The position numbers and the translations under genes are program-made. A model generated the notes under the pieces. It ran no database searches. It saw only the letters and a program-made list of their open reading frames with translations, and was not told the origin of the DNA. A stretch of DNA of 64,000 nucleotides from Eledone cirrhosa. Lineage: Eukaryota. Below are positions 3,741 to 63,145 of this stretch, piece by piece (position 1 is the first letter of the stretch; every line of letters begins with the position of its first letter). The stretch spans positions 90,582,001 through 90,646,000 of the forward strand of contig OZ024742.1 of assembly GCA_964016885.1 (NCBI GenBank), in the 5' to 3' direction.

Positions 3741-5125
3741 TTATTATAGTAACAATACCTATAACATACGTGTGTGTGTGTGTGTGTGTGTGTGTGTATC
3801 CTATGTGTGTGTGTGTGTGTGCGTGCGTGTGTGAGTTGGTGTATACATGTGTGTAGAATTATTTGTCTTAAAAATTTTGTATTTACACTTTTTCCCCCAT
3901 AATAGTGTTCATATCTGTTTAGAGTGTACAATCCACACACATTCTCTCTCCTGATTAGAGGAAAGAATTATAATCATAATTTAAAGCACAGTACCTTATG
4001 TGTGTTAGGTTCCTGGTGGAGTAGTATGGATGCCATCATAGCTACATTTAAACCAAAATGAAACCATCGCTCTTCAGATCGGAACAGCCAATTTCTTCCT
4101 GAGAAATAATGTGTGAAAGAGATGCAGAGAGAGAAAGAAGTGATATAGAGAGAGAAGTGATAAATAATTAGGCACCGTTTGGAACTAGTACATAACCTAT
4201 TGACCTCGAAATGATGAAAAACAAATTGTCCTCAGAGGGATTTAAGCTCAGATGACCTGAATACCGTAAGCATTGTATCCGACGTTCTAACGACTCTGCC
4301 ACTTGTCCGTCTTTTAAATCAAAGATAGTTTCCTTGTCTTCTCTACTAAATACTTTTTAACTATTGTTTAATTAAAGGAAACGTGGATATGTGGCTATGT
4401 TGTCAATAATTATGCATATATATATATCCTTATTTTATTGGCGGAAGAAGCAATTTGGATATTTTATTGCAAATTCTATTTTATAACACCTATATGTTTT
4501 TACACTTAACTGAAGAAACATGCTTTATAATGTCAGTTTTGTGAGCTTGCATGCCATTAGTTCAGTCTTTTCTGTTATAAGTTTATTACGATCATGTTTT
4601 ATATTCACTGAATGTAACATTTGTGGATTAATGATCCAGGGATTCTGAAACTTTCTTTTTATCATACTTTGACTATTTATCATTTGGGAACAATTGAGAT
4701 GCATCAGAAAAAATACTCGTCAACAACGGAACTCCCAGTTAGTTAATGTTAAGCCATTATTTGATAACACTATTTCGTAAATATTACTTGAAAGCAATGA
4801 AAATCACTTTTGTCCATTGTGTCAAAGTTGTTTCTTCAACATTCGTTCAAAATCCCATAACAGTAGTTGAGCCGTTGGCTTCATTACATAACCCAGAATG
4901 ACTAATAGAACGAACCTCTCATAGCATAGAATGAGTCAGACGCCTTCATAACAGCTGGCTCCCTCGCTACTCAGCAGAGCCGCGTTGGAAGGTTCAAAGG
5001 TTTCTGCACTTGTGAAACTTTAAGTAATGGACAATCTGCTCGACAAACATTACTCTGTATGTTGAGCAATGTTAATGCTTGTCGAACTCTGTTTAGGGAC
5101 ATATACATTATACATTTGTTGCGAA

Positions 5126-8697: not shown

Positions 8698-9037
8698 ATA
8701 CGGTATATTGCCAAATATACTATACATACATTCATGTATACATCGCTATTTCAGGGCACCAATCCTAATACCTCATTTTTGCTGGACCGGCAATCGCTCT
8801 GTATAATCAGCTCTTGATTATTACTGGAATTCTATAAGAATCCAGCTTCTATGATTTTCGGCAAAGGCGATGAGGATAACGAACAGTGTGAAACAGACTC
8901 TGTTAGCTTCTCTCCCTTCTTTTGCCGAAAAGAAGAAGTAAGTGACATAGTCACTACTTTAAAAATGATAGCGCAAGGTCTTCAAAATGTTTTTAATTAA
9001 ATATACGGTATATTGTCAAATATACTATACATACATT

Positions 9038-9097
<60 letters not shown>

Positions 9098-9219: not shown

Positions 9220-9279
9220 TCTTTAATTGCTAACAGTGTTTCGTCCACACTAGAAGTGGGACTCTTCAGAGCATAAAGA
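9220..9279 (-). ncRNA. Hammerhead ribozyme (left arm)
   Basis: Reverse-complement copy of 11341-11400 with one loop substitution. Confidence 0.85.
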
Positions 9280-11340: not shown

Positions 11341-11400
11341 TCTTTATGCTCTGAAGAGTCCCACTCCTAGTGTGGACGAAACACTGTTAGCAATTAAAGA
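11341..11400 (+). ncRNA. Hammerhead ribozyme (right arm)
   Basis: TCTTTA TGCT-CTGAAGA-GTCC CAC TCCTA GTG T GGAC-GAAACA C TGT T-AGCA AT TAAAGA. Canonical core, GUCC/GGAC stem II, 1-nt loop III, triplet GUU. Confidence 0.88.
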
Positions 11401-18579: not shown

Positions 18580-21250
18580 TTGTTGTTATTACACTTTGAG
18601 TCTCAGTCATTGATGTTAGTTAACTGGAAAGTTTGTTGAAATGAATATCAAGCCACTACCTGCAGCCTCAGATATTCAGGACGTATCGGAGGGTTATTGC
18701 TGTTCCCAGCAAGCATGCCATTTGAAGCGTTCCAAAAAGCGTGGCGAGGCCAATTTTCTTTAACCATCCCTGGAAACTTTTTGAGATAGTCCCTAGTGCG
18801 CCTATGGCAATCGGGATCACTTTGACTTCATGGCAGTTGCAAATCATTTTTACCTCCCACTTTAAGTCCTGGTATCGGTTAATTTTCTCCCTTTCCTTCT
18901 CTTGCACTCTCGTGTCGAATGGGCAGGCCACATCCACAATCAGGCACGATCTTTTTTCTTTGTCCACAACCACCAGGTCAGGTCTATTGTGTTCCAGTTT
19001 CTTGTCCGTCTGTATCCTAAAATCCCACAGCACCTTCACCTGATCGTTTTCTATCACCGCCTCTGGCTTATGCTCATACCACTTCTCAGAATGTGGTAAA
19101 TTGTTTACTTTGCATAGGTGCCAGTGGATCACCCTGCCCATCACATAATGTCTCCAGCCCTTTTAGTGAGTCTGGGCTAGGTGTTTACACTCGGATACAA
19201 TGTGAGCCACAGTCTCCTCTCTCTCTCCACAGATCCTGCACAGTGGGCTAGCCTCCTCCTTGTAAATATGGTGTTTCAACCACTTCGTTTTGAGGGCCTG
19301 CTCCTGCGCAGCCATTAACATTCCTTCTGTAGCCTTTTTAAGGTCTCCTCTTTTCAACCAGTTCCATGTCTGTGGATCTCTAAATTCAGTTTTCTCAAAG
19401 AAGGTACTATGAAGGGATTTTTCCTGAAGGCTGCTCTTTCTCCTTGATGTTATTGATTGGCAGTATCGGTAGAGGGTCGGACGCCATGCTTTCCAGCATA
19501 GTTACGTCCCTTTACGATCTGTGTTCAAATCCCGCCGAGGTTGACTTTGCCTTTCATCATTACGGGGTCGATAAAATAAAGTACCAGTAATGCACTGGGT
19601 AATTGCTGGCCTTGTGCCTAAAGTAGAAACAGTTATTTCCTCCTTGGATATCCCCTGGCCTATTGTCCCCTCCTTCAGTACAGTCCTGAGCATTGGCTCC
19701 TTACTATCAGTCACGTATTTGTGTAGGTTGTTTTTCTCCATCAGAACACAGTCATCTATGCTGATAAGACCTCTTCCACCTTCAGATCTCCTTAAGTAGA
19801 GTCTATCGACATCACTCCTCTTGTGGAACATGTTGTAGATAGTCAATAGCTTCCTAGTCTTTCTATCCATTTCTTTTTGTTCAGCAACATTCCATCTCAG
19901 AATTCCCGCACTGTACCTAATAATAGACACAGCTCGGGAATTTACTGCACTTATGGCATTCCTACTGTTCAGATGTGACTTTAATACGCTCCTTATTCTC
20001 CGAATGTATTCAGTTCTTATCAATTCCTTTATTTTTTTTTTGTTCTTGATGTCATCAGCCTCCAGAACGCCCAAATACTTGTATCCTTCTTCAGAGTCAA
20101 TTTCCTTTATCATCTCACCTGTTGGTACCTGGATTCCGTTACTTCTGCTCAACTTACCCCTCTTCATCACAATGACTCCACACTTACTAATACCAAATTG
20201 CATACATATATCATTGCTGAAAATACGGACAGTGTCAACAAGCACACCCAACTCCTTCTCACTCTTCCCGAAGAGCTTAAGATCGTCCATGAAGAGGAGG
20301 TGATTGATGGTAAGCCCTCCCTTTTCCAACCTGTATCCTGCTCTCACTTTTCGCAGTACACTCGTCAGGGGCATCAGGGCAAGGACAAATAACAGAGGGG
20401 GCAGACTATCTCCCTGGAAGATACCTCTCTTGATCTTCACGCTTCCCAAGGATTCTCCAGTTGATGTTAACTCTGTTTCCCAGGACTTCATACTTTTGCC
20501 CAACAACTGTCTGATGTTATCTGCCACCTTGAAGATCTCCAGGCTTTTGGTGATCCAAGAATGAGGCACCGTGTCAAATGCCTTTTTGTAGTCTATCCAT
20601 CCCATGGCAAGACCAGTGTATCAATAAGTAACTGGTCCTTTGTACCACGTGACTTCTTTCGGCATCCTTTCTGTTCGTCCGGTAACAAGTTGTTTGTGTG
20701 GAGGTAATGGTAGATTTCCTCAGACATAATGCTTGTCAACAGTTTCCACATTACGGACAGACATGTGATAGGTCTATAGTTGGTAACATCATTACCCTTG
20801 ATTCGGTCTTTCATTATCAGAACTGTGGTACCTTTTGTCAACCACTCTGGTACCTCACCTGACATCAAGCAGTCATTGAACATGGTTGTCAGTTTCAGGT
20901 GGAGGGATGTAATATTTTTAATCCAATACCCCTGCACACCACCTGGGCCTGGTGATTTCCAATTGGTTAGTTTTTTGGCCTGCCCCTTAAGAGTTTCAAC
21001 TGTGATACTCAAATCAGTTTGTTGGTGTGCCTGTTCACTAATCTCCTTCTGTACTGTCTCAATCCACACTGCCTGGTCATTATGTTTAACATCCTGCTCC
21101 CATATTCCTCTCCAGAATGTTTTAGTTTGTTCCGCCTCAGGGATCAAGTCGTTGCCTCTTTCTTTCCCTTCAAGCTGTCCAAACAGCATCTTCTGGTTGT
21201 TGTGGAACATGCGGTTCTGTCTATACTGACTGACTCTGTTCTCGTTTATT
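18580..21250 (-). mobile_element. 5'-truncated R4/Dong-clade LINE, family A (RT, CCHC zinc finger, restriction-like endonuclease), frameshifted
   Basis: Motifs YRPITCL, WIDYKKAFD, GIFQGDSL, LFMDDLK, CRICGEREETVAHIVSEC and NRPDLVVVD...DVACP...EK..RYQDL. The 3' end abuts a (TAA)n tract. Confidence 0.88.
19458..19633 (+). mobile_element. Full-length SINE inserted in the Dong-A ORF
   Basis: Same SINE family as 3550. It interrupts the RT-to-zinc-finger linker. Confidence 0.85.
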
Positions 21251-21255
21251 ATTAT

Positions 21256-22098
21256 CCCAGATTTTGCCCGCCTGCAGGACGGGACAACAATCCAACTAAT
21301 GATTGACGGAAGAAGGCCACGCTGCTTCGTTTGCGGGGAAGCCACGCATCTTCAAGCCTTCTGCCCTCAGCGCAAAAATGCAGGGGGTCGCAAACCTCCT
21401 TTGTTGCCAACGCCAGTGTCAGCACGGAAAGCTGCACCACCACCACCACCAAAAACAACATCAACAAAAACACGGATACCAACATCAAAAGCAGCCGGAT
21501 CACCACCAACACCAAAACCAATCCAAGGAGAAAACGAGGAAAGCTCTCCCACTCCCCCTACCCCCCCCCCCCAACTATATACATAGACAAAAAAAAAATA
21601 AACGCACACACAGACACAGAGACACTCACAGACACAGACCCTTTATCTTCCAGCAGCGAAGATGAAGGAAAACCCCAAAGTGCAAAATAACAGAGAACTC
21701 ACAAAAAAAAAAGCCCCAACAAAACACAAAAACACACACAACAAAAAATACAGACACCACTAACGCAGACACTTCCCCAATAACATCAGCACCATCAGCA
21801 ACATCGACACCACCTCCACAATCCCCGAAACGCAAACAACCTAAACAAACACAAGTACAAATAAACACACAAATACCTGAAATTGCATACACCACACCTA
21901 CAACAAACATAGGGTCGTCCACCCCCTATCGGGGAATTTATTTTGTTATATTTTGCATAGTTTATTTTATATTTTTATATTTTCATTATTAAATTAGTCT
22001 TGCCATTGTGCACTTTTACTCGACCTGTTTGTAAACCCCCACTGTCCCTGTCTTTGTATTGTCCCCTACATGTCGGCCCTTGTGGCTAATAAATGAAA

Positions 22099-22100
<2 letters not shown>
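21256..22100 (+). mobile_element. Internally deleted Tx1-like element (ORF1 fragment fused to 3' UTR)
   Basis: IDGRRPRCFVCGEATHLQAFCPQ is homologous to the ORF1 knuckle at ~26580. The 3' UTR CCCCCTATCGGGG...GTGGCTAATAAA is followed by (ATT)n. Confidence 0.8.
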
Positions 22101-22129
<29 letters not shown>

Positions 22130-22132
<3 letters not shown>

Positions 22133-24322
22133 AGTTGCATTTATCTTGCTTTATGTTCATACGAGTTATCACCAAGTCACAACCAGTGACCTCAAGAGAC
22201 AACAAGGTCCGCCATGTTCAAGAAAGAACATACATACTCACACATGCATCTTTAGTGTTTAGACTTGTGATGTACTTATATTGACAGAATCTTCCTTAGT
22301 ATATGGGCAGTTCCCATTAGTACTATCTTTTGTATTTCTCCTATACGCGGGTTTCCTGGGATTTGCGATAAGTAATCATTAGACCCCTTAGGTATCATTC
22401 CCAGAGCGCCTACAACTACTGGTATTGTTTTAGTTCTCAATTTCCACATTTTTCCAATTTCTATCTCCAGGTCCTTATATTTGCTCAATTTTTCAAATGT
22501 TTTTATAGATACATTCTTGTCTATTGGAACGGACATATCAATTAGCAGGCATACCCTCTTTTTAAAGTCCTTCAATATTATATCAGGTCTATTTGCATCT
22601 ATTTTTCGGTCTGTTTGGATGCTAAAGTTCCACAAAATTGAGATGTGATCTTTTTCAAGTATGGGAGGTGGTTGATGCTCCCACCAATTCTTTTGATGGG
22701 GCAGGTCAAAATGCTTACATATTATCCAATGTATGTATTGTGCAGCTCTGTCATGCCTGTTTAGGTATTCGGTTGGAGCTATAGGACTGCACATTGAAAT
22801 TATATGGTCAATGGTCTCTGGTTGTTTTTTGCATACACAGCATAATGGGCTGCATCCATTTTTTATTATGTTGGCTTGGTAATTTTTTGTTGGCAGACAC
22901 TGATCTTGTGCTGATATAATCAGTCCTTCAGTCTCCGATTTCAGTCCAGAGGATGCCAACCACTGATGGGTTAAACTTTTGTCAACATCAGGATTGTTAG
23001 CTCGTTCTGGGTATTTTCCATACAGAGACTTTTCTTGCCATTTCTTAGCCAGTTTCTGTAGCAGTTCTTTCTTTGCAGTTACTTTTACCTGCTTTGCTTT
23101 TTCTGTGTTTTCCATTTCAGCAGTAAATGGAACTTCTGAAATTTGTAGTCCATTACTGTATCTTTGTGCATCTTTTGTAATGGAATATGATCTTTTGATG
23201 CTTTCGTGTTTACAAACGTGTATGATCATCCAATCATGTGATTCCCTTAGATATGTAGATAATCTAATTGTTGCAGTTTTTGAACGCAATGTCTAACTGG
23301 ATTAACCCACGTCCTCCTTCTTTCCTAGGGAGATATATTCTATTTGTATCTGCCTTAGGGTGATGCATTCTGTGCATGGTTAAGAATTTTCTAATTTTTG
23401 TATCGAGCCTACGGATCTCTGTGCTTGACCAGTTGATGACATTGTAACTGTAGGTTACTACTGGTATGGCAAGCGTGTTTATGGCATCGATCCTATTCCT
23501 TGCATTCAATTCCGTTCTTAAGATTGCTCTTACTCTGCGGTAACATTCCTTCCTTATCCTTTCCTTCATTGTCGAGTGCTTGATTCCGTCTCCTTCACAA
23601 ACACTTAGATATTTGTAAGTTTTTTCTTGATCAAGTTCTCTTATCACGTTCCCCCGATCAAGATTAATGTCTGAACTCTTCAGCAGCTTTCCTCTGGTGA
23701 ACGTTGCTTTGGCGCATTTATCTAGTCCAAACTCCATTTTAATGTCATCACTGAACTGCTCCACAGTGGATAATAGCCCTTGCAATTGTTCATCATTTTT
23801 TTGCAAATAGTTTCAGGTCATCCATGTAGAACAAGTGATTAATGGTCTTGTCATAGACTTTATATCCATGTTTTATTTCATTGAGCATTTTATTTAATGG
23901 TATAAGTGCGATGCAGAATAAAAGCGGTGATAAAGAGTCACCCTGAAAAATTCCACAATTAATATTAACTTCTCTAGCTTCCAGTGATTTTGTTTCACTA
24001 TTCAAAAGGAGTGTCGTTTTCCATGTCTTCATACTGAATGACAAAAACCTCCTGACAATGGGAGATATTTTGAAAATCTCTAAACATTTTTCAATCCAAC
24101 TGTGTGGCAAACTATCGAATGCTTTTTTATAATCTATCCAAGCAATTGATAGATTTTTGTGTCTATTATGACAATCTTCCAGTATCATTTTGTTAACCAA
24201 AAGCTGATCCTTACAGCCATATGAGCCTCGTTTACACCCTTTCTGCTCAATGGGAAATAGGTCATTTGTTATCAGGTGGTCATATGTGTATTCAGTTAGG
24301 ACTGATGTTAAAATTGTATACC
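22130..24322 (-). mobile_element. 5'-truncated R4/Dong-clade LINE, family B
   Basis: Motifs EQKGC, WIDYKKAFD, GIFQGDSLSP, FYMDDLK, a CCHC remnant and NRPDIIL...DMSVP...EKLSKYKDL. Flanked by (TAA)n. Confidence 0.88.
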
Positions 24323-25546: not shown

Positions 25547-27529
25547 ATGGCTAATTCACCTCTGCACCAAGCAGCTGAAAGCCTTTCTCACAAATTAACA
25601 CCTCACACCGACACCACCATTGTAAATGTTACTACGTTTGCCAACACTACAAAAAATATAAGCAGTAGCAATATTTTAAATTTGTCTCAGGCAGACATTC
25701 ATTTCCCGCCATTACCAATGACTGCAGGTGTTAAAGCCCCCACCACCACCACCACCGCGACAACCACCACCCCCACCACCACCGCGACAACAGAAACAAA
25801 AGAAGAAAAAAATAAATTAACTCCTGATGTCGAAATGAAATCAATCAAAATGGACTCTTCCCCACCAAAGACGACTGACGTCACCACCACCACAACTTAA
25901 ACTAAAATTAATATTAACACAAATAACGATAGCAACAACAACAACAATGACATTATAAAAACCACCCTCAGTTTTGCCAGAGTAGCAAAACAGTTCGAAG
26001 CATTTACGGTAACTCAGGAGGATTTAGAAAATGCCAAACAAATGGTAAAGAAAGATGGGTAAAGGGTCAGCCTCACCCCCCCACCTAATAAAATGGAGCA
26101 TCGGCGCCTATGCACCGTGTCGTATCGAACAATAAATGTAAAATCGCGCGGAGTGAAACGGGCATCCGAGTCCCAAATCCAAAAAGCTTTGGGACATGTG
26201 TGGGCAAGAAAAACCCACATCAGACGTGGGCAGAAGTATGGAACCGTGGACGTGTTCTTTGAAACACCAGAGGAGGCTAGAGAACAGTCCATGGCCCCAT
26301 TAAGAAGTGACGACTTCACACTCGTCCCAAGCTATTGTGGCCAGAGTCTCGTAAAGATCAGGGTGACCCACGTTCCACCGGCCATCGAAATTCCCTGGCT
26401 AATAGCAGCCGTCCTCGCCGGCATCGAAGCCAACACAAAAATAATAGCAATAGCAAAAGAAAAGCAGGAGAACTGGTCCGGATCTGGGATGGAGCTCCTG
26501 ATCCAAGCGGACCAAAATAGCATTGAGGAGATCCCAGAGGTAATAGACCTCACTGACGGCAGCTACCTCACGGTAATTGTCGAGGGCAGAAGACCTAGGT
26601 GTGTCGTTTGTGGTGAAGGAACCCACCTAAGGGGTTTCTGCCCTCAGGCTAAAAGGTTGAGGCCACCTCTCCTACCCACCCCAGTGACACAACCATCAAC
26701 ACCACCAGTAACAGAGATGGCAGCAACAACTGTAGCAGCAACAACAGAAGCAACTATAACAGCAACAACCCCAGCAACAGTAGCAAAACCAACACCACCA
26801 CCACCACCAGCAAAACCAACACCACCACCACCCAACACTTCAGAACTAGCACCAGCGCCTACACCATCCACCACGCCACAAGCAAAACTAACGCCTGTGG
26901 AGGATTTTCCACTCCCCGGCCTATCACAACTGGAGACAGATTGTGACGACGAGGAGTGGGAAACGATATCCGGAAAAAAAAAAGAAACCAAAAAATGAAA
27001 AAATTCTCTTCCTTCCCCCTCCAAAAACAAAATACAGAGGGAAACAAATAAATTAAGAAACAAAAAAGTTAGGACAGATATGCCACCATCCACACCAGCA
27101 TCACCAACCCCATCAACCCAAACACCAACACCATCACCATCATTAACCCCAACACCACCATCACCTACACCACAAAAGTCACCAAAATGCGAAACAGAAA
27201 CAAACCCACAACAAACGCAAACAAAACAAAACAACCAAAACGATACACACTACACAGCATTAAATTTGAACAACAAGCAATTATTACACTACATCCAACA
27301 CAACACCAGCATCACAGAAAAAGACTACACAACAAACCCAAAATTCACACCACCTCCACACATACAAATCACTCGCATCACACAGAAAACGTACATGACA
27401 CTAAAACAAAAATTCCCCAAAGACATCGGAGACTTCCGACAAGCACTCTCCAGGAGGATTTATCCGGAGGAGGCCACAAGCAGTGAAAAGGATGGAGAAA
27501 CCATCCTTCCTCTACGAGAAGTAAGGTAA
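25547..27529 (+). pseudogene. Tx1 ORF1 (gag-like, Pro/Thr-rich), disrupted
   Basis: Pieces at 25547-25900, 26093-26998 (CVVCGEGTHLRGFC) and 27080-27529. Confidence 0.75.
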
Positions 27530-27563: not shown

Positions 27564-30500
27564 ATGACCTCACTCAGAATAGGCAGCATAAATGCGCGTG
27601 GCTTGGGGTCGTCATGGAAGCAGGGCCACCTGCTCAAAGACCTTAGGTCACTAAACATAGATGTAGTGGCCATCAGCGAGACCAGAATCTCTGAAGCACG
27701 GGCCTTGGCACCGATCTTCGGCGGCTACGATGTGTACGCATCTCCCAGCCGTCCTGGATCGGGGGGGGGGAGGTCTTGTTGTGCTTTTTCGAAGAGGTTT
27801 GGATCTCGCCATACGGACCATCTTCCTGGACCCAGAAGATAAGTTGGTGGTGCTGGACGTGACCAGCGAAGACGGGCAAGCTTTCAGGCTAGTGGCCGTC
27901 TATGCCCCGACAGGAGCAGGGCGGCCTGATTTCTTCCGGCGTCTGGAGACCTTTCTTGGAACGTCCCGCTCTTTAGTGTTAGTGGGAGACTGGAACGGGA
28001 TCCTAGATGCACGCTGGGACTGTGTGGAATTAGCGGATAGGGGAGCAGGGTGCAAGAGCCTCACCAACCAACTCAGGCGTTTTGAACTGTCTGACAGGTA
28101 CCGATTGGATTTCCCGAATGTGCCAATGTGGACTTGGACAAACCGCATAGGGTCATGCAGATCATATCTAGATAGAGTATTTTGTAGGGAAATAGATAGG
28201 TCTAGCATAGGCTGCCCAAAATTCAAGATAGTCAGCTACATGGACCACAAATTTGTGATCTGTGTGCTTGACTTAGATAGGCTTCATAGACGAGGACCCG
28301 GCTACTGGAAGCTAAACGCGTCCTTACCAGCGCGCATGGCCTACAGAGACCGGATTAGCGAATTAGTTAAGCGGGCGTTGACGGGGGCCATCGTCAACAA
28401 CAAGTGGTGGTTTGCTCTGAAAAGAGCGATTTGAATAGAGTACATTAGGTTTAGTAAGGCTTTAGCAATAGAGAAACATAGAGCAGAGAGAGAACTAGTT
28501 AGAAAATTAGACGAGGCGCTTAGCAAAGGCATCGCGACCGACGTACCTGCGCGAAATTGGACCTTGACCAATTCTTCAATGCAAAGCACGAAGGCTGTGT
28601 TGTCAGAGCTAGGGTGCGTGCTCTCAGACACGACGGGACGAAAGCCGTTCAATGGACCCGAGTGGCGGACGGAGGCACGTCGTGGCAACAAAGCCACGAT
28701 CCGGTCTTTGGTGGACCACGACGGGCGCATGCTACTCGATCCCGGGCAAATGTGTGAAGCTTTTCAGCGACACTTCGCTCAGCTGTTCGGGGGCAGCGGC
28801 GGGCCGGATCGAGGGATGGACTTTAGTGTCTACCTCGACGGACTGCCGGGGCTCTCTGCCACTGAGGCGGAGTGTTGCGAAAAGCCGATAACAGCCGCTG
28901 AAGTACGGGAGGCAATGACTGGCTGCACAAGGGGTAAATCGCCTGGTTTGGATGGTCTGCCCTATGAACTTTACGTACAGATGCTAGACTTGTTCGGAGG
29001 CCTCTTGGCGGACGTCTACTGCAACTGGCAACAGAACGGGAGAATTCCCAGCTCTGTGAGCCGAGGAGCTGTGGCGCTGCTGAGAAAGGATCCGAACAAG
29101 GGGGATAACATAGATAATGTCAGGCCCATAACTCTGCTAAACACAGAGTTCAAGATGTTGGCCAAGGTGCTAGCAAATAGATTAGCGCTTGTCGTTGGTG
29201 GTCTGGTGGGAGAGGCGCAGACATGCGCCATTCCCGACAGATCCATCCACGACAACCTCCACTTCATGCGATACATCGTGGAGAGGGTAGCTAAGGAACC
29301 TGGCACGGCTGGGTCTTTGATCAATTTAGATCAGTCGAAAGCTTTCAATAGGGTCGACCATCTTTACCTAGCCGCAGTCCTGAGGGCGGCTAGCTTTGGG
29401 TCCGTCTTCAGAGGCTGGACCGCTGCCATGCACAGCGACATCTGCTCTGTGGTGAGAGTGAACGGTCACCTTTCGGAACCGTTCAACATCATGCGCTCGG
29501 TCCGCCAAGGATGTCCCCTCTCGTCCCTCTTGTACGTATTGACACGCGAACCATTACTGCACAAACTGGAGACGTTGAGGGGCGTCCCGCGCGAACTAGG
29601 ATGCGGAAGATCCGTGTCAGCCTATGCGGACGATGTCACCGTAGTGATGTCGAACGCCAAACACATCGAGGCGATCGGCACTACACTAAGAGAATACGAA
29701 GCGGTGACAGGAGCTATGATCAACCAGGAAATGTCAGTGGGCCTGCAACTCGGCACCTGGAGAGGCAGATCCATGCCGTCCAACAGCGCCGGTTAAATTG
29801 TTAGGGGTCTGGTTCGGTCCGGACCTCCAGACGGATAAAAACTGGAACGAGGTGACGAGCAGGGTGGCTTCTCTCACCCAGAAATGGGCGGACAGGAAGC
29901 TATCCCTGAAAGGTCGAGCGGAGGTGGCTAACGCGTACATCGCGTGCGTCATCTACTACCGCCTGACCGTCATACCTTGTCCTAAGCCCCGCCTGACTGC
30001 GCTGGAGCGTTTTCTCTTTCGCTTTCTGTGGAAGAGATGCGCTCCGATGGTCAGGCGGTCCATCTGCTGTCAACACCCGCTACGTGGAGGGATTGGGCAT
30101 GCCGTGGCTGATGATCCGCAGACATAGGCTCAGGCTACGACATCTCCACCTGTTCCTCGACGGTGATCAGGTGTGGTCGCCATTTGCTAGACGCGTCTTT
30201 TCCCAGCTTGTCTCCTTGATGGAGCTGCAGTCCTGGGTCAGGCGAAGACCGAGGGGGAGCGCTTGGAGAGTGGAATGTCTACAGGCGCTCACAGCCCTCC
30301 GCTAATCGGGCAATGTGATCAGTGGAAACTCCACCTTGGCGTTCTATAGAGGATTAGTGGAGGGGAAGAGCGACGACGTACTTGGGGAAACTCTAGGCGT
30401 CGACGAAAATCAACTATCCAATCTCTTCGGAAGAAATTTCGGGCCGGGTCTTATGGACAACTTCCAGAAATCCCTGGTCTGGCAGTGCTACCGAGGAGCC

Positions 30501-35103: not shown

Positions 35104-36393
35104 TGAAGTGGATGAGGAGGAGCAGTAATTTACTTTAACTTCAAGAGTTCTTCCTTTCTCGTCAACTTTGTCACCTTGGGCACTCCATAGAAGTGATTTT
35201 GGTGAGGTCGTAATGCTGTGGATACGTTAATTCTGCTGCAGCCTAGCGTGATTAATCAACTTCACCGGAACTAATGAAGCATCAGTTAGTATCTGCTGCT
35301 GCTACTGATGATTATGATGATGGTGGTGGTGGTGGTGGTGGTGAGGAGGAGGAGGAGGAGGAGGAGGAGGAGGAGGAGGAGGAGGAGGAGGAGGAGGAGG
35401 AGGAGGGATGATTGGGGGGGGGGGGTGAGTATTGGGAGGAGGTGTCGGCCTTGTCGTCGCCGCCATGATGAGGAAAAGAAGGATGACGTCGACGATAAAA
35501 TTAATAATTGTTTCTAGTTTTGGCACAAGGCCAGCAAATATCCCAGTGCATTACTGATGCTTTATTTTATCGACCCCGTAAGGATGAAAGGCAAAGTTAA
35601 CCTCGGCGGGAGTAATAATGATGATGAGAAGGAAACGTTTATAGCAGGTATTGAAATGTAGCTCTTAGGATTTCTCTGATATTATGTTTCCTCATCTGTT
35701 GAAGAAATATTCGCATGCTTCTGATAAGTTTCCCGTTTGACCAATGTATATTTCTTCGTAATTCAGGCATTTGATATAGTAAATCAGATTTCTTCGTTTA
35801 CAATTCATATGGCATTTGCAAATATTGTTCATGTTGTTCATTTAAACTTTGCCTTTGTTACTAATTGTTTCAAGTTACTTGACTGTTGTCTGCTTTGAAT
35901 ACGTGTACTCTCAGTAATTATATACTTAATTATTTCAATTTGTCTGATAATCGGTATATTTGGTTTAGTGACTTGAAAAAAATATTTTCCCTATATTGAT
36001 TGTGCCGCTAAAAGATGTACTATATGATGGATTTTATATATCTTTTTTGTGCAATCTATGTTACATGTTATCTCCCTATCACTCACATTGACTTTGTTGC
36101 ACAGCCTTACCTTTTTCAGGGCAATGTCTGCAGGAAAACGGACGGAATAGAAACCAGAATGGGGGCTCACCAAATTTCTTATGGCGGAAGCGAAGGGATA
36201 TGCAATCTTGATAACCAGTAACGAGCGAGAAACGGCCGTCGGTTGCTTCCCTTTGTTTCTCATAGCGAATGGTCTTCAAAATGTTTTAAAATAAACATAC
36301 AGTATATTATCAAATATACTATACTATACTATATATATATATAGTATAGTATAGTATCAGAGCAAACATCACAGACGCTCTATCTCAAAATTA

Positions 36394-36429
36394 TTTTTGA
36401 AAAGCATTAGAAATGCGCAACCGGTAAAA
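36394..36429 (+). ncRNA. Hammerhead, U3-A8 family, with an A13C change
   Basis: TTT-TTGAAAA-GCAT TAGAA ATGC-GCAAC CG GTA-AAA. Homologous to 62785-62822. Confidence 0.55.
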
Positions 36430-36537
36430 CTTAAAACCAAAACTGTATACTAACCAATACTATTACTAATTCTCACTTATTCCTAATTAAACTATTTTTC
36501 ACTGTGAACAATTTGTCAGCATTTTCTTTTCCATTTA

Positions 36538-36628
<91 letters not shown>

Positions 36629-37901: not shown

Positions 37902-38128
37902 CAAGAAAGATGGGAAAAAATTACTTCAACATTTAATTTTAAATCTTTAATTTTTAGTTTTTAATTCTTATTAATTCTTTTTAATTGTAATACTCAACAT
38001 TTAATAAGATGAATTTTAATAATACATCGAAACCGGTAATACTTTATATACTTTATATACATTATAAAACTCTTTTTTAAAAGAATTGTGCCTCTCATTT
38101 TTTTAATAATGTCATTTTTTCAGTAATG

Positions 38129-39182: not shown

Positions 39183-39249
<67 letters not shown>

Positions 39250-39591
39250 AGGAAAATGCGAAGTTGCAGTTGTTAATGATTCCTTTAATAATAGAGCCAT
39301 TATACATATTTCAATGACGATTAATATCGTGATATCACTAGACAGCAACATTGAGTAAAAGGTAACATTTCCGAGGCAATTATGAGTGGAAGGGAGCGGT
39401 CTAAAAAACATTTATACTTTTGCTTTTTTTAAATTTTTAGTCCGCTCCCTTCCACCCATAATTGCCTCGGAAATGTTACCTTTTACTCAATGTTGCTGTC
39501 TGATGAAATCACGATATTAATCGTCATTGAAATATGTATAATGGCTTTACTAATAAAGGACTCATTAACAACTACAGCTTCGTATTTTCCT
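39250..39591. repeat. Fold-back with ~160-bp arms, each carrying a hammerhead motif
   Basis: 39250-39409 is the reverse complement of 39435-39591. Confidence 0.85.
39495..39545 (+). ncRNA. Hammerhead ribozyme
   Basis: GCTGT-CTGATGA-AATC ACGAT ATTA ATCGT CATT-GAAATA TG TAT A-ATGGC. The inverted copy at 39296-39346 has a mutated core (CTAGTGA). Confidence 0.75.
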
Positions 39592-40359
39592 CTTTCTAAA
39601 TATACTCCGTTATCCATATTTTGAAGAAGTAATATGACGTCGAGTGCTTGAATTGAATTCCATCCTTGTGTACCGAATATATATATATATGAATTCATAT
39701 TACATCCGCGTTAAAATAACCCGTACAAAAAATATAGGAATTCTTTTGTTTGAGTAAATATTTAAATTCTTAGTTATTATTTCCTTGTTAGTCAAGACCA
39801 AGATGATCCTTTTCCTTCCCTTACAAATTTGAGATGGGAGGGTATGAGGAAAGTATCCTCAAATGGAGTGCGCTGAATGCTTGCAGCTATCAGGTGCTGG
39901 TATTAAACCTGGAAATGGATGAAGTTTTCCCCTCAATTAGTTTAATGTGATTTGAACTCAGAAATCAAACATCTTGAAAAATGTCGCAAACCCTCTTGCC
40001 GGATGTTCTAATAATTCCGCATTTCTCCCGTGAGACTGCAGTTTATTTACCGCCTCAGTAAAGGTCAAAGTCAAAGCTAACCTCGACGGTATTTAAATTT
40101 AGAATGTATTTTCCAGCTTACAATATTCCATTACTCTTTTGTTTTCATGTCCTTTTCTTAGGAGAATATTCCAACAATATAATTTACTAAAACAGATACT
40201 CAAAGACTGTCAATTTTTGTCAGAATGTTACTGCCTTTTGATTACTTCCGTTTCGTCATGTGTAGATGCAAAATACACATACAGACATAGATACACCTAC
40301 AGACATACACGTTTAGTTTACAGAATCATAAACCACACTATTTTTACATAACACTAAAG

Positions 40360-50242: not shown

Positions 50243-50780
50243 TCTATTCTCAGCTAAGTTTCCAGGCAATACGTGGACACAGGGAACTTATACAAAAATA
50301 ATTCAGTGGATGGAAAAAAGCAAAGCGTGGACTAAATTCCTAGCCATTGAGAAAATCACTGCCTACTGCGTCGGTGGCAAATTCAAAAGAATCAATCAGT
50401 GGAAAGTGGTTTGTTAAGAAGACAGCAGCCGGACTGTTACTATAGCAGCAGTGTTAGCCAATTTTTGCTCGACAAATAATTTGGAGATAATTATATGTTA
50501 CTAGATATACTAATTCTTTATAATTATCTCCAAATTATTTGTCGAGCAAAAATTGGCCAAAACTGCTGCTATAGTAACAGTCAATCAATAACAACAAGCA
50601 CATAAACACACACTAGTCACCCATCACACAGCAAACAAAACACTATACACACACGCAAACGCATGCGCAAAGAAGACAAAATAAAATAAACAAACAAGCA
50701 AATAAATAAATAAATATATAGACAGACTGAATAAAAAAATGGCGTAGACATACAACACAACAGGAGGAAAAAAATATAAC

Positions 50781-51713: not shown

Positions 51714-54406
51714 CCGTTTTACGTCCGTTCTTCCATGCTAGCATTGGTTGTCCTGTTGTGGGCAGTGTCTGGTCGGCTGACCATGCCTTGCTCATACAGG
51801 AACTGATTTTGGCTTGATTTCTACAGCTGGATGCCCTTCCTAACACCAACTTCATTTACATTGAGTGGTGGCTGCTTTTTCCGTGGCGCCTACACGTCCA
51901 CTTTACAGTGTGGGCTGGATGCTTTTTGCCGTGGCACCTCCACGACCACCTTGCAGTGGGAGGGTGTGGGGGCATATTGTCTATATGCTTCAGCTTGTAC
52001 CCATGGGAGGTCGGGTACTCTGTATTACTGCGTGACGCCAGAGGTCAGGGTCGTGTGTCATCGCCTTTGAGAGGTGTAATTGGGTAAGGTCGGCTTTTAT
52101 CACCTCATCCCAGGTCTTCTTGGGTCTCCCCACTCCGCGGTTTCCATTGACTTCTAGTGCTCTGCACATTTTTATGCAGCTGTCATCCTTCATACGCATC
52201 ACATGTCCATACCAACGCAACCGCGTCTTCTGCACACAGCATTTGATTTCTCTTATGCTCAGTCTCTCTCTCAATTCATTTATGCTTTGTCGTTCGCGTA
52301 TATTACTATTACACATCTATCGGAACATTCAGGCTTCGTTTCGTTCTTCCACCTTCAGTGCCCAGGTCTCACTACCATGTAACATTGCTGTTCGGATACA
52401 CGCATCATACAGTCTGCCTTTCATTTTGAGGGAGAAGCCTTTTGCAGCTAGCAGTGGCAGTAGTTCCCTGAACTTCTTCCATCCCGTTTTTACCCTAGTT
52501 ATTGTACTTTCTGCTAATTCGGTCACCTAGGTAGCAGAAGCTGTCTACTGTTTCTACAGAGCCCTCCCAGAGATTGGTGGTACTTGTTTCCTGTGGCTGT
52601 TTGCTGCTTGCTGTCGCAGCACAGCTGCTACATGTGAAGCCTGCATTCTTAATTAGGCTCCGTGAGATCCTGCTACATCTCTTGTGTACCCATTGTTTGC
52701 ATTTGGGGCAGAGAATGGAGTTCCTAGCTACACCTTTCGTACATACTGAGCAAGGCCATTTCCCGGAGGGTATCTGCGTTCTGTTTTCTTTTCTACTTAC
52801 AAAGACCTTAGTCTTTGTCGTGTTGACTTTGAGACCCTTTCTTTTTAGTCTCTGCTTCCAAGTTTGGAATTTCTTCTCTAGTTCTACCATAGATTCAGCT
52901 ATAAGTGCGAGGTCATCAGCATACAGGACTTCCCATGGGCATTCGGTCTTAAACTCCTCCATTATTGCCCGCAGGACTATGATGAACAGGAGAGGGCTAA
53001 GAACAGAGTCCTGGTAGACACCAACCTGTACGCTAAATTCCTCGCTATACTCATTGGTAATCCTAACTTTGCTGACTGCTCCCCTATACATGGCTTGTAC
53101 ATCTTTCACAAGCCATTCATCTACTCCTAGTTTTCTAAGAGTCCACCAGATTACAGCACGTGGAACTCTGTCAAAGGCTTTCTCGAGATCGACGAATGCC
53201 AGGTAGAGTGGCTTACTTTTAGCTAGGTACTTTTCCTGTAACTGCCTCATAAGGAAGAGGGCATCAGTGGTGCCTCTTCCTGGTACAAACCCAAATTGCA
53301 TCTCATCTAGTTTCACCCAGTCCCTAATCAACTGTGCTATAACTCTTTCTGTTACTTTCATGACCTGGTCCATCAGCTTTATACCTCTATAGTTTCCTCT
53401 ATCTAGTGCATCATCTTTACCTTTGTAGCAGTTGACAATGATGCTACTGCACCAATCTTTTGGTATGACACCTTCTAGTATTACCTGGTTAACAATAAGT
53501 GTGGTTATAGTGTGACCTACAGACCCAGATGCCTTCAGCATCTCGGCAGCTATACCCGATGGACCAGTTGCCTTCCCCATATTCATATCTTTGATTGCCT
53601 TACTTACTACGCTACTGCTGACTCGTACTGCTGGCCCCTCTATAGCGTCTACTTGGGGTAGGGTCTCTTCTTCCCATGCATTCTCCTCATTTAGTAATCT
53701 ATCATAATGGCTCTTCCATGCATCTTTCTTCTCAGAAATTGTGAGGGCAAGCTCACTTTTATCATTCCGGATACACTTCTCTCCAATGACATCACAATTC
53801 TCTCTGACACACTGCCTCGCAATCTTGAACACCTCATGTTTCTGGTCCTCACGTTGCAAAACATGCTTGAATTTTCTATCCTCTGCTTCTCTCCTAGCTA
53901 AGTATACTTGTCGCCTAACTTCCCTCTTGGTCTCTATGTAATGTACCCTGCTCCCCCCGTTCTTCCATTCTTTCCATGCCTGTCTCTTGGCCTTAACTGC
54001 CTCATCTACCTTATTGTTCCACCACCAAGTCACTCTCCTCCTGCTTGTGGTCTTACTCCAGCCACAGATCTCATCCGTCGCCTCTAGTAAGTTATTTTTT
54101 AGGAACTCCCAGTGCTCTTCTACATTGAATGTCTATATCTGTTCTTCTTTACTGTCGTAGGCGTTGAGTAAAATATCTTTAAATCTGTTACTGGCTGAGG
54201 GGTCTTTCAGCTTCCAGATCTTTCTTCTCCAGGTTGGCCTCTGTTTCCAGGTTCCTCTAGTTCTGACCGTGAGGTCGCTGACAACTAAGCTATGTTGGGA
54301 GGTACATTCCTCACTAAGGTAGGCTTTTGTGTTTACGACCGTCCATCTGTCACGTCCTCTGATGAGGATAAAATCTATCTGACTCTGATGAGGATAAAAT
54401 CTATCT

Positions 54407-62658: not shown

Positions 62659-62898
62659 TATAAAGAAAAAGGGATGAAATCGAAAATGCAACTGAAGTCT
62701 TATTTTTTTTAAAAATATATATATTTATTTGGTTCCTTTACATCTGAGATGTGAGAAAAACCACAGACCCTCCATCTCAACTCACCTTTTGAAAAGCAGA
62801 AGAACTGCGAAACCGGTAAAGGAACCAAATAAATATATATATTTAAAAAAAAAATAAGACTTCAGTTGCATTTTCGATTTCATCCCTTTTTCTTTATA
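62659..62898. repeat. Fold-back with ~83-bp arms and a hammerhead in the loop
   Basis: 62659-62741 is the reverse complement of 62816-62898. Confidence 0.88.
62785..62822 (+). ncRNA. Minimal hammerhead, U3-A8 core variant
   Basis: CCTT-TTGAAAA-GCAG AAGAA CTGC-GAAAC CG GTA-AAGG. Confidence 0.75.
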
Positions 62899-62953
62899 CT
62901 TCCACTCGTGTAGGACACCTCGGTTATTTTTCATTTTGTAAAAAAAGCCTCAC

Positions 62954-63008
<55 letters not shown>

Positions 63009-63054: not shown

Positions 63055-63105
63055 GGCTTTCTGATGATTTCCTCCGAATGAAACAGTTCTAGTCCTGTAG
63101 AAGCC
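63055..63105 (+). ncRNA. Type I hammerhead with a normal stem III
   Basis: GGCTTT-CTGATGA-T TTC CTCC GAA T-GAAACAG TTCTAGTC CTGT A-GAAGCC. A degenerate copy lies at 60074-60125 and half copies at 51582-51660. Confidence 0.8.
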
Positions 63106-63145
63106 ATTTCTATATTAAATATATATATATATATATATATATAAT

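Follow-up and report, generated by a model that had tools for sequence, protein, structure and literature searches.

A U3–A8 hammerhead motif in the terminal repeats of two Penelope-like retrotransposon families of Eledone cirrhosa, one of them with a fixed A13C core change

The window analyzed here is a 64,000-nt stretch of the Eledone cirrhosa genome (GCA_964016885.1, OZ024742.1:90,582,001–90,646,000, forward strand) that contains two related sites, locus A with a core at 62789 and locus B with a core at 36397, which belong to repeat families A and B, respectively. Based on sequence comparison, we identify both sites as 5′-truncated 3′ ends of two young, autonomous families of Penelope-like retrotransposons (PLEs), each carrying a minimal type I hammerhead motif with a U3–A8 core and a palindromic stem III. 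Neither site is a free-standing ribozyme gene. The first-pass annotation of this DNA had described them as members of a ribozyme family, which misses the retrotransposon context; it was right that they are homologous (62756–62820 vs. 36364–36428, 78% identity over 65 nt, E 1e-10) and that a TTGAAAA core is present at 62789 and 36397. The family A site is a 3′ end composed of a pLTR with its tail at 62742..62960 (+), which ends in (AT)n and is 96% identical to the 3′ end of an ORF-bearing family A copy (L156). An inverted, tail-less second arm of the same insertion lies at 62659..62741 (−) and adjoins (AT)n; it is a copy of 62816–62898, with which it forms an 83-nt inverted repeat of 98% identity. 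The family B site is a pLTR at 36356..36540 (+), followed by (AT)n, that is 87–94% identical to both ends of a full-length family B unit (L144). The window also contains a decayed copy of a related U3–A8 family, family E, at 37932..38056 (+, 74% to L227), with a core at 38001–07 in which G5 is changed to A and a palindrome at 38032–37.

Using the conventional hammerhead position numbering, the family A motif at 62785..62822 (+) is composed of stem I (62785–88/62819–22), the 5′ half of the core, U3-U4-G5-A6-A7-A8-A9 (62789..62795), stem II (62796–99/62805–08), G12-A13-A14-A15.1 (62809–12), and the palindrome ACCGGT (62812–17). Both the sequence and the fold prediction, the latter for the dimer, follow the type I order of stem I, core, stem II, GAAA, stem III, NUH, and stem I, and locus A has G12-A13-A14, an A15.1–U16.1 pair, and an H17. 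The family B motif at 36394..36429 (+) has the same layout, with stem I at 36394–96/36427–29, the core at 36397–403, stem II at 36404–07/36413–16, and the palindrome at 36420–25, except that positions 36417–20 read G12-C13-A14-A15.1. This core change was hidden behind a dot in the consensus given in the earlier reading; it makes catalytic activity of locus B doubtful, and we file family B as a hammerhead-derived motif rather than a proven ribozyme. An alternative register for family B, which uses the GAAA located in loop II, was rejected by eye, as it has neither a stem II nor an A15.1–U16.1 pair. The Watson–Crick 3–8 pair is U3–A8 at both loci and in the related families D, E, and F, which are introduced below. 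The stem differences described earlier are present, stem II being GCAG/CTGC in A and GCAT/ATGC in B and stem I CTT/AAG and TTT/AAA, and the cleavage position proposed earlier, after A62818 (GUA), fits the motif layout, the equivalent predicted cut in locus B being after A36426.

Stem III of these motifs is possible only as a 2-bp helix in a monomer or as a 6-bp helix in a dimer. The palindrome ACCGGT is invariant in 14 of 14 aligned rows, and dimers that pair through it are predicted. Small dimeric variants of PLE hammerheads with a reduced stem III have reportedly been described by Lunse, Weinberg, and Breaker to cleave as dimers. Taken by themselves, the short motifs do not fold more stably than shuffled sequences (z −0.8 for A and +0.4 for B), whereas motif plus upstream hairpin does (z −3.0 for A, over 62742–62830, and −2.3 for B). 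In family A, this predicted hairpin lies just 5′ of the hammerhead motif at 62745..62779 (+); homologous hairpins are found in families B and F, and its base is the site of many 5′ truncation and inversion junctions, a pile-up that is partly due to the query used. The predicted family A dimer has a minimum free energy (MFE) of −22.5 kcal/mol, with stem I and the palindrome paired between molecules, and the designed active dimer lies 2.4 kcal/mol above its own MFE in family A versus 5.9 kcal/mol in family B (−10.8 vs. −16.7 kcal/mol). In the family B monomer, a hairpin at 36385..36400 (+) is predicted to pair U3-U4-G5-A6 and thereby hide the core: the probabilities that these four positions are unpaired are 0.01, 0.01, 0.01, and 0.11, and the competing hairpin pairs U3-U4-G5 with a probability of 0.99. 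Stem I of family B consists of three A–U pairs.

We searched the 3.0-Gb genome using DNA searches and exact motif patterns with control counts. The full-length unit, 4,726 nt in family B, is composed of the motif, an ORF1 of 455 aa, an ORF2 of 784 aa, an approximately 0.9-kb UTR, and a second occurrence of the motif, and the first ATG of ORF1 is located ∼190 nt 3′ of the predicted cut. ORF2 contains a reverse transcriptase (RT), a CX4CxxC linker, and a GIY-YIG endonuclease: Pfam RVT_1 and GIY-YIG domains are matched in both families, the linker (of the CX2-5CxxC form) precedes the endonuclease in both, and a CxxC that lies between LIY and YIG and is followed further downstream by His residues identifies a GIY-YIG domain with CCHH. 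ORF1 has no Pfam match and overlaps the start of ORF2 by ∼65 nt in another frame (L144:5299–8948); this overlap, together with an ORF2 frame that opens without a Met, suggests a programmed frameshift. Longer family B copies extend 5′ into the end of the GIY-YIG ORF among the matches listed. For family A, 30 loci were selected through the upstream UTR; the endonuclease ORF end is found at 14 of them, and one locus has an open frame of 845 aa. A descriptor search finds one motif per family B unit; Rfam searches of three ORF-bearing loci detected no ribozyme, and thus no second one in B, and a metagenome scan with the end of family A ORF2 returned no relative. Given that the motif lies in the terminal repeat of an element encoding an RT and a GIY-YIG endonuclease, as minimal PLE hammerheads do, we are close to certain that it is a PLE terminal hammerhead motif.

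Most copies are ∼200-nt pieces that end in (AT)n and often form inverted pairs, and many are young: family A copies of 99–100% identity and family B copies of 97–100% identity are common among those scored (40 of 451 and 40 of 416 candidates, respectively). Among 117 family A copies, 65 have a long 3′ end, 40 a short one, and 12 another form. These features, together with partial tandems, inverted truncated arms, a tail, and (TA)n targets, are those of the Neptune/Nematis-type EN+ PLEs described by Craig et al. (2021; PMC8557442), whose account likewise includes partially tandem copies, inversion of arms, insertion into (TA)n, and 3′ ends of two classes. This is a likeness by features rather than by a tree, and the elements described here differ from the published description in the separate ORF1 that overlaps ORF2, in a 3′ UTR of about 1 kb, and in a family B terminus and ORF that have different nearest relatives. 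Poseidon PAc of Anolis (PMC11167929) also resembles families A and B in its pLTR hammerhead, its two 3′ end classes (with a tail), and its AT-rich targets; unlike A and B, its core is described as a canonical C3–G8 core that overlaps the ORF start.

One U3–A8 pattern that covers both families is found at 26,477 exact places genome-wide (control 0), whereas the canonical CUGANGA pattern with the same stem III is found at 4 (control 1). Rfam reports no hammerhead family at either locus with E values up to 10, which is weak evidence because it is expected for variant minimal cores, and the matches listed for the whole window are simple-repeat and hairpin noise only. CUGANGA and Rfam searches therefore overlook tens of thousands of such motifs in the E. 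cirrhosa genome. The suggestion that CUGANGA searches would miss a selected U3–A8 family is thus borne out in number, but such motifs in PLEs were published in 2014, and the U3–A8 swap itself is not new. Cervera and De la Peña (2014; PMC4209133) used a U3–A8 descriptor that gave ∼1,300 matches in Schistosoma, listed the UUGAAAA core, and reported U3–A8 hammerheads in Cercyon pLTRs that have low in vitro activity even as dimers. That U3–A8 is an accepted substitute for C3–G8, as the first-pass annotation held, agrees with its description as a natural variant in this source and in a survey in which U3–A8 is active among other natural core variants (PMC3088659). In a mutational scan of another hammerhead, the 3–8 pair was rescued by a C/G swap only (PMC9901934); given this result and the low in vitro activity of PLE minimal hammerheads, U3–A8 may be slow. 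Like Cercyon of Schistosoma mansoni (PMC4209133), families A and B have a U3–A8 core, a short stem I, and a palindromic stem III that needs a dimer; the motif lies in a terminal repeat; and most copies are single and truncated. Unlike the published Cercyon motifs, stem II in A and B is 4 bp with no extra base after A9, stem III contains a 6-nt palindrome, there are ∼26,500 copies rather than ∼1,300, and the C13 of family B does not occur in the part of the published alignment that we compared.

A looser pattern, found at 4,089 places (control 78) that include mutated A and B copies, revealed the additional families D1, D2, D3, E, and F. All five keep UUGANAA and GAAACCGGUH, and their stems have changed yet still pair. 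Between family A and families D/E, four-fold degenerate sites are 0.31–0.36 identical, versus 0.28–0.37 expected at random, and no alignment is obtained for the upstream flanks (z up to 3.1). That the core persists between families whose flanks cannot be aligned and whose synonymous sites are saturated supports selection, and on this comparative evidence we conclude that the U3–A8 hammerhead clade of PLEs is real, selected, and very abundant. The covariation proposed for the two loci is weak when they are taken alone, given that they provide only two double changes; across six related U3–A8 families, it has support. In an alignment of 14 representatives, two per family or subfamily, with one misaligned row and some entries that are single decayed copies, the score for covariation is 0.287 versus 0.115 ± 0.033, a value that 0 of 500 shuffles reach and that exceeds all six slid controls; however, the two measures least sensitive to relatedness are not significant (161 and 240 of 500). 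The outer pair of stem II is dispensable, as family A copies with U·C or C·C at this position exist, and an A·G mismatch at stem I pair 4 is present in about half of the family A depth in one sequencing run. The 10.1–11.1 pair, which is usually a fixed G–C, is U·U, U–A, U·C, or A–U in families D and F, and the families with an altered pair still have many copies (D: L219, L212, L237, L235; F: L243–L261).

These weak or mismatched 10.1–11.1 pairs are among the observations that would fit a reading in which neither motif usefully cleaves and catalysis is vestigial across the clade, the fold being kept for RT binding, an internal promoter, or dimerization. Such a reading would also fit the success of family B with C13, the proliferation of Naiads that lack canonical hammerheads (PMC8557442), and the report that catalytic mutants insert normally in vitro (PMC11167929). 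We consider it unlikely, given that every catalytic position, including the compensating 3–8 pair and NUH, is kept across families at saturated synonymous distance and that family A insertion junctions cluster at the predicted cut.

Family B is probably a mosaic, as its ORF2 is nearest to those of D1 and D2 (72% aa identity) and its terminus is A-like (z 10.8); a swap of 3′ ends between PLE families is the likely origin. The loci compared for this assignment were L144, L156, L225, L226, and L227. The A and B ORF2 sequences are 57% identical, with saturated four-fold sites (31/107). Families A and B share a more recent ancestry in their termini than in their ORFs, so the A–B comparison is not a clean test of selection, and we dropped their synonymous saturation as a proof of it.

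The C13 of family B is a fixed feature of the family rather than of the window copy. Among 11,542 places genome-wide with the B-type stem, C13 occurs in 11,383 and other bases in 159, and C13 is present in the best 30 of 30 family B loci. Open frames of 784 aa occur in 21 of 150 scored family B endonuclease matches, and the C13 (GCAA) motif is present in 12 of 12 fetched copies with an intact ORF2. These 12 copies represent a subfamily whose loop is 6 nt long, whereas the loop is 5 nt long in the subfamily of the window copy; a long copy of the latter subfamily has an ORF2 94% identical to that of the former. Because A13 is kept in families A, D1–D3, and E and in 19 of 20 family F copies, C13 is likely derived. 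Mutants of A13 are strongly impaired in hammerhead cleavage. Among the natural core variants that we compared from PMC3088659, there is no A13 substitution, and our literature search for A13C or a GCAA core found no precedent, although an earlier variant survey or supplement may hold one. What appears to be new is an autonomous family that thrives although a further core change, A13C, is fixed in it, a closely matched family whose core is intact, and the family A junction signal discussed below.

Across three B subfamilies, one represented by four copies, 19 of 127 flank columns vary, but none of the 31 positions in the core and stems does (P about 0.007), so the B motif appears to be still constrained, for cleavage or another job; this conservation argues for a retained function, possibly cleavage. 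It is one point in favor of the reading that both motifs are working ribozymes and that C13 is tolerated, for example through its amino group, which would stand in for that of A13, or by protein rescue, which would make B an active U3/A8/C13 variant. The substrate half and stem II of B are intact, PLE hammerheads can be protein-assisted (PMC11167929), and some natural core variants retain low activity (PMC3088659). However, A13 is kept in all other families, in F with the one exception noted, and in the published alignment as far as compared (PMC4209133), and the three A–U pairs of stem I, the 99% paired core, and the unfavorable active dimer of B described above also argue against it; we regard an active B variant as doubtful, though a serious contender. 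We lean, by a narrow margin, toward family B cutting much more weakly than family A. A further reading, that B serves as a trans substrate for an intact core of A or D via the shared ACCGGU palindrome and that its own catalytic half is relaxed, draws on the presence of the palindrome in all families and on predicted A–B pairing through it. We consider this very improbable, given that a cross-family stem I would have only ∼2 bp, that the A–B MFE structure has no stem I, and that the catalytic half of B is still conserved.

Insertion junctions provide a possible genomic trace of family A cleavage. A pattern in which an AT run is followed, after no more than 6 free bases, by the 18 nt immediately 3′ of the predicted cut gave 170 overlapping matches; those listed represent, by hand count, 54 distinct places, all of family A. 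The insertion starts at 0 to −2 relative to the predicted cut at 52 of these 54 places, a count that does not include positions downstream of the cut: 30 start at 0, a further 22 start at −1 or −2, where the AT flank makes them indistinguishable, and the remaining 2 start at −3 to −6. When the count is limited to junctions preceded by one out-of-phase base, position 0 has 7 and positions −3 to −5 have none (binomial 6e-5); of these 7, two may stem from a single event. Each of the 23 places that were checked, mostly of the position-0 class, runs on into the family A 3′ end, and three of them are short duplications that start at the cut. In a set of 125 arms assembled for different purposes, a start at 0 is seen just once. 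Microhomology between A/T and (AT)n favors positions 0 to −2, and stalling of the RT at an RNA structure could give a similar step. Overall, we think that family A probably cleaves in vivo. For PAc, by comparison, Frangieh et al. (2024; PMC11167929) report no RNA-seq ends at the cut site of their own element, so that no in vivo trace of cleavage is described there.

Considering the window and the genome together, our preferred explanation, in which we have good confidence, is that both loci are truncated PLE ends, that the family A motif likely self-cleaves after GUA, and that the family B motif, with A13C, is predicted to cleave weakly if at all. We propose that the endonuclease would nick (AT)n targets and that target-primed reverse transcription would start within the RNA, 80–140 nt 3′ of the motif. 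The RT would usually copy uncut RNA through the motif and often stop at the upstream hairpin, which would give short copies. The 6-nt palindrome would pair two motifs, in tandem units or in two RNAs, into stem III, possibly with help from the protein of the element, and the family A motif would self-cleave as a dimer or with the aid of protein. Cleavage of a tandem read-through transcript would generate a 5′ end ∼190 nt before the start of ORF1, and a minority of family A insertions would derive from cut RNAs. In family B, the fold would be selected, yet cleavage is probably not needed for jumping.

In its strongest form, this proposal states that A cuts in vivo and leaves cut-site insertions, and that B reached more than 11,000 copies, with intact ORFs, after losing catalysis through A13C while its fold remained selected; we offer this form tentatively, as less probable than not. 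If true, it would demonstrate on the scale of a genome that it is the structure of the hammerhead, and not its cleavage, on which Penelope elements depend. The role of the hammerhead in PLEs is described as unclear (PMC8557442, PMC11167929), and Frangieh et al. find the PLE hammerhead to be protein-assisted and catalytic mutants still to insert in vitro. Those PAc mutants were engineered (PMC11167929); family B, by contrast, would be a catalytic mutant of natural origin. Families A and B allow a direct test of the need for the hammerhead with short RNAs and one genome, as they form a matched pair of closely related families, one with an intact core and one with A13C, and as family A offers a countable, possible genomic trace of cleavage.

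Given that most A and B copies are only ∼200 nt, we also considered that they might be non-autonomous tandem retrozymes, that is, circular RNA replicons, rather than ends of an autonomous element. The same genome does contain a true U3–A8 retrozyme-like repeat, family C, a 316-nt tandem. Non-LTR retrozymes also share with A and B a type I hammerhead in a PLE-related repeat; unlike the ends of coding elements, they are described as short non-coding tandems (PMC7229834; bioRxiv 10.64898/2026.07.22.740005). Copies of A and B do not form short head-to-tail tandems of 170–400 non-coding nt, and their longer copies reach RT–endonuclease ORFs. A retrozyme identity of A and B is contradicted by these ORF-linked full-length copies, and we consider it almost certainly wrong, retaining the assignment of both loci to PLE ends.

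Family C itself, as a non-coding head-to-tail tandem of ∼316 nt with a full type I hammerhead and a U3–A8 core (C2:207685000–207723000, L200–L202), looks like a non-LTR retrozyme by its sequence organization. It is also found at L198, L199, and L204–L207 and has a 4-bp stem I with a distal stem and a longer palindromic stem III. We left it out of the covariation count as a relative of A and B, as its flanks and architecture differ. Directly 5′ of locus B, at 36202–36246, the window contains another U3–A8 hammerhead-like motif (core 36208–14) with a 6-bp stem I, a broken stem II, and the palindrome CGGCCG; it is followed at 36262–36343 by a sequence 77% like the family C unit, and a further family C-like unit (71%) lies at 8739–9039.

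Canonical CUGANGA hammerhead-like motifs are present in other repeats of the window at 39500 (+) and 42906 (+), at 11345–11395 (+) with an inverted copy near 9269 (−), and at 63055–63106 (+), where stem II is degraded. Long inverted repeats at 39244–39597 and 50432–50582 give spurious matches to miRNA families in Rfam, and the former, which contains the 39500 motif, may be another inverted PLE end. Pieces of non-LTR retrotransposon ORFs with RVT_1, Exo_endo_phos, zf-RVT, and PHD domains, unrelated to the hammerheads, are located at 19502–23292 (−), 27667–29796 (+), and 52495–54132 (−).
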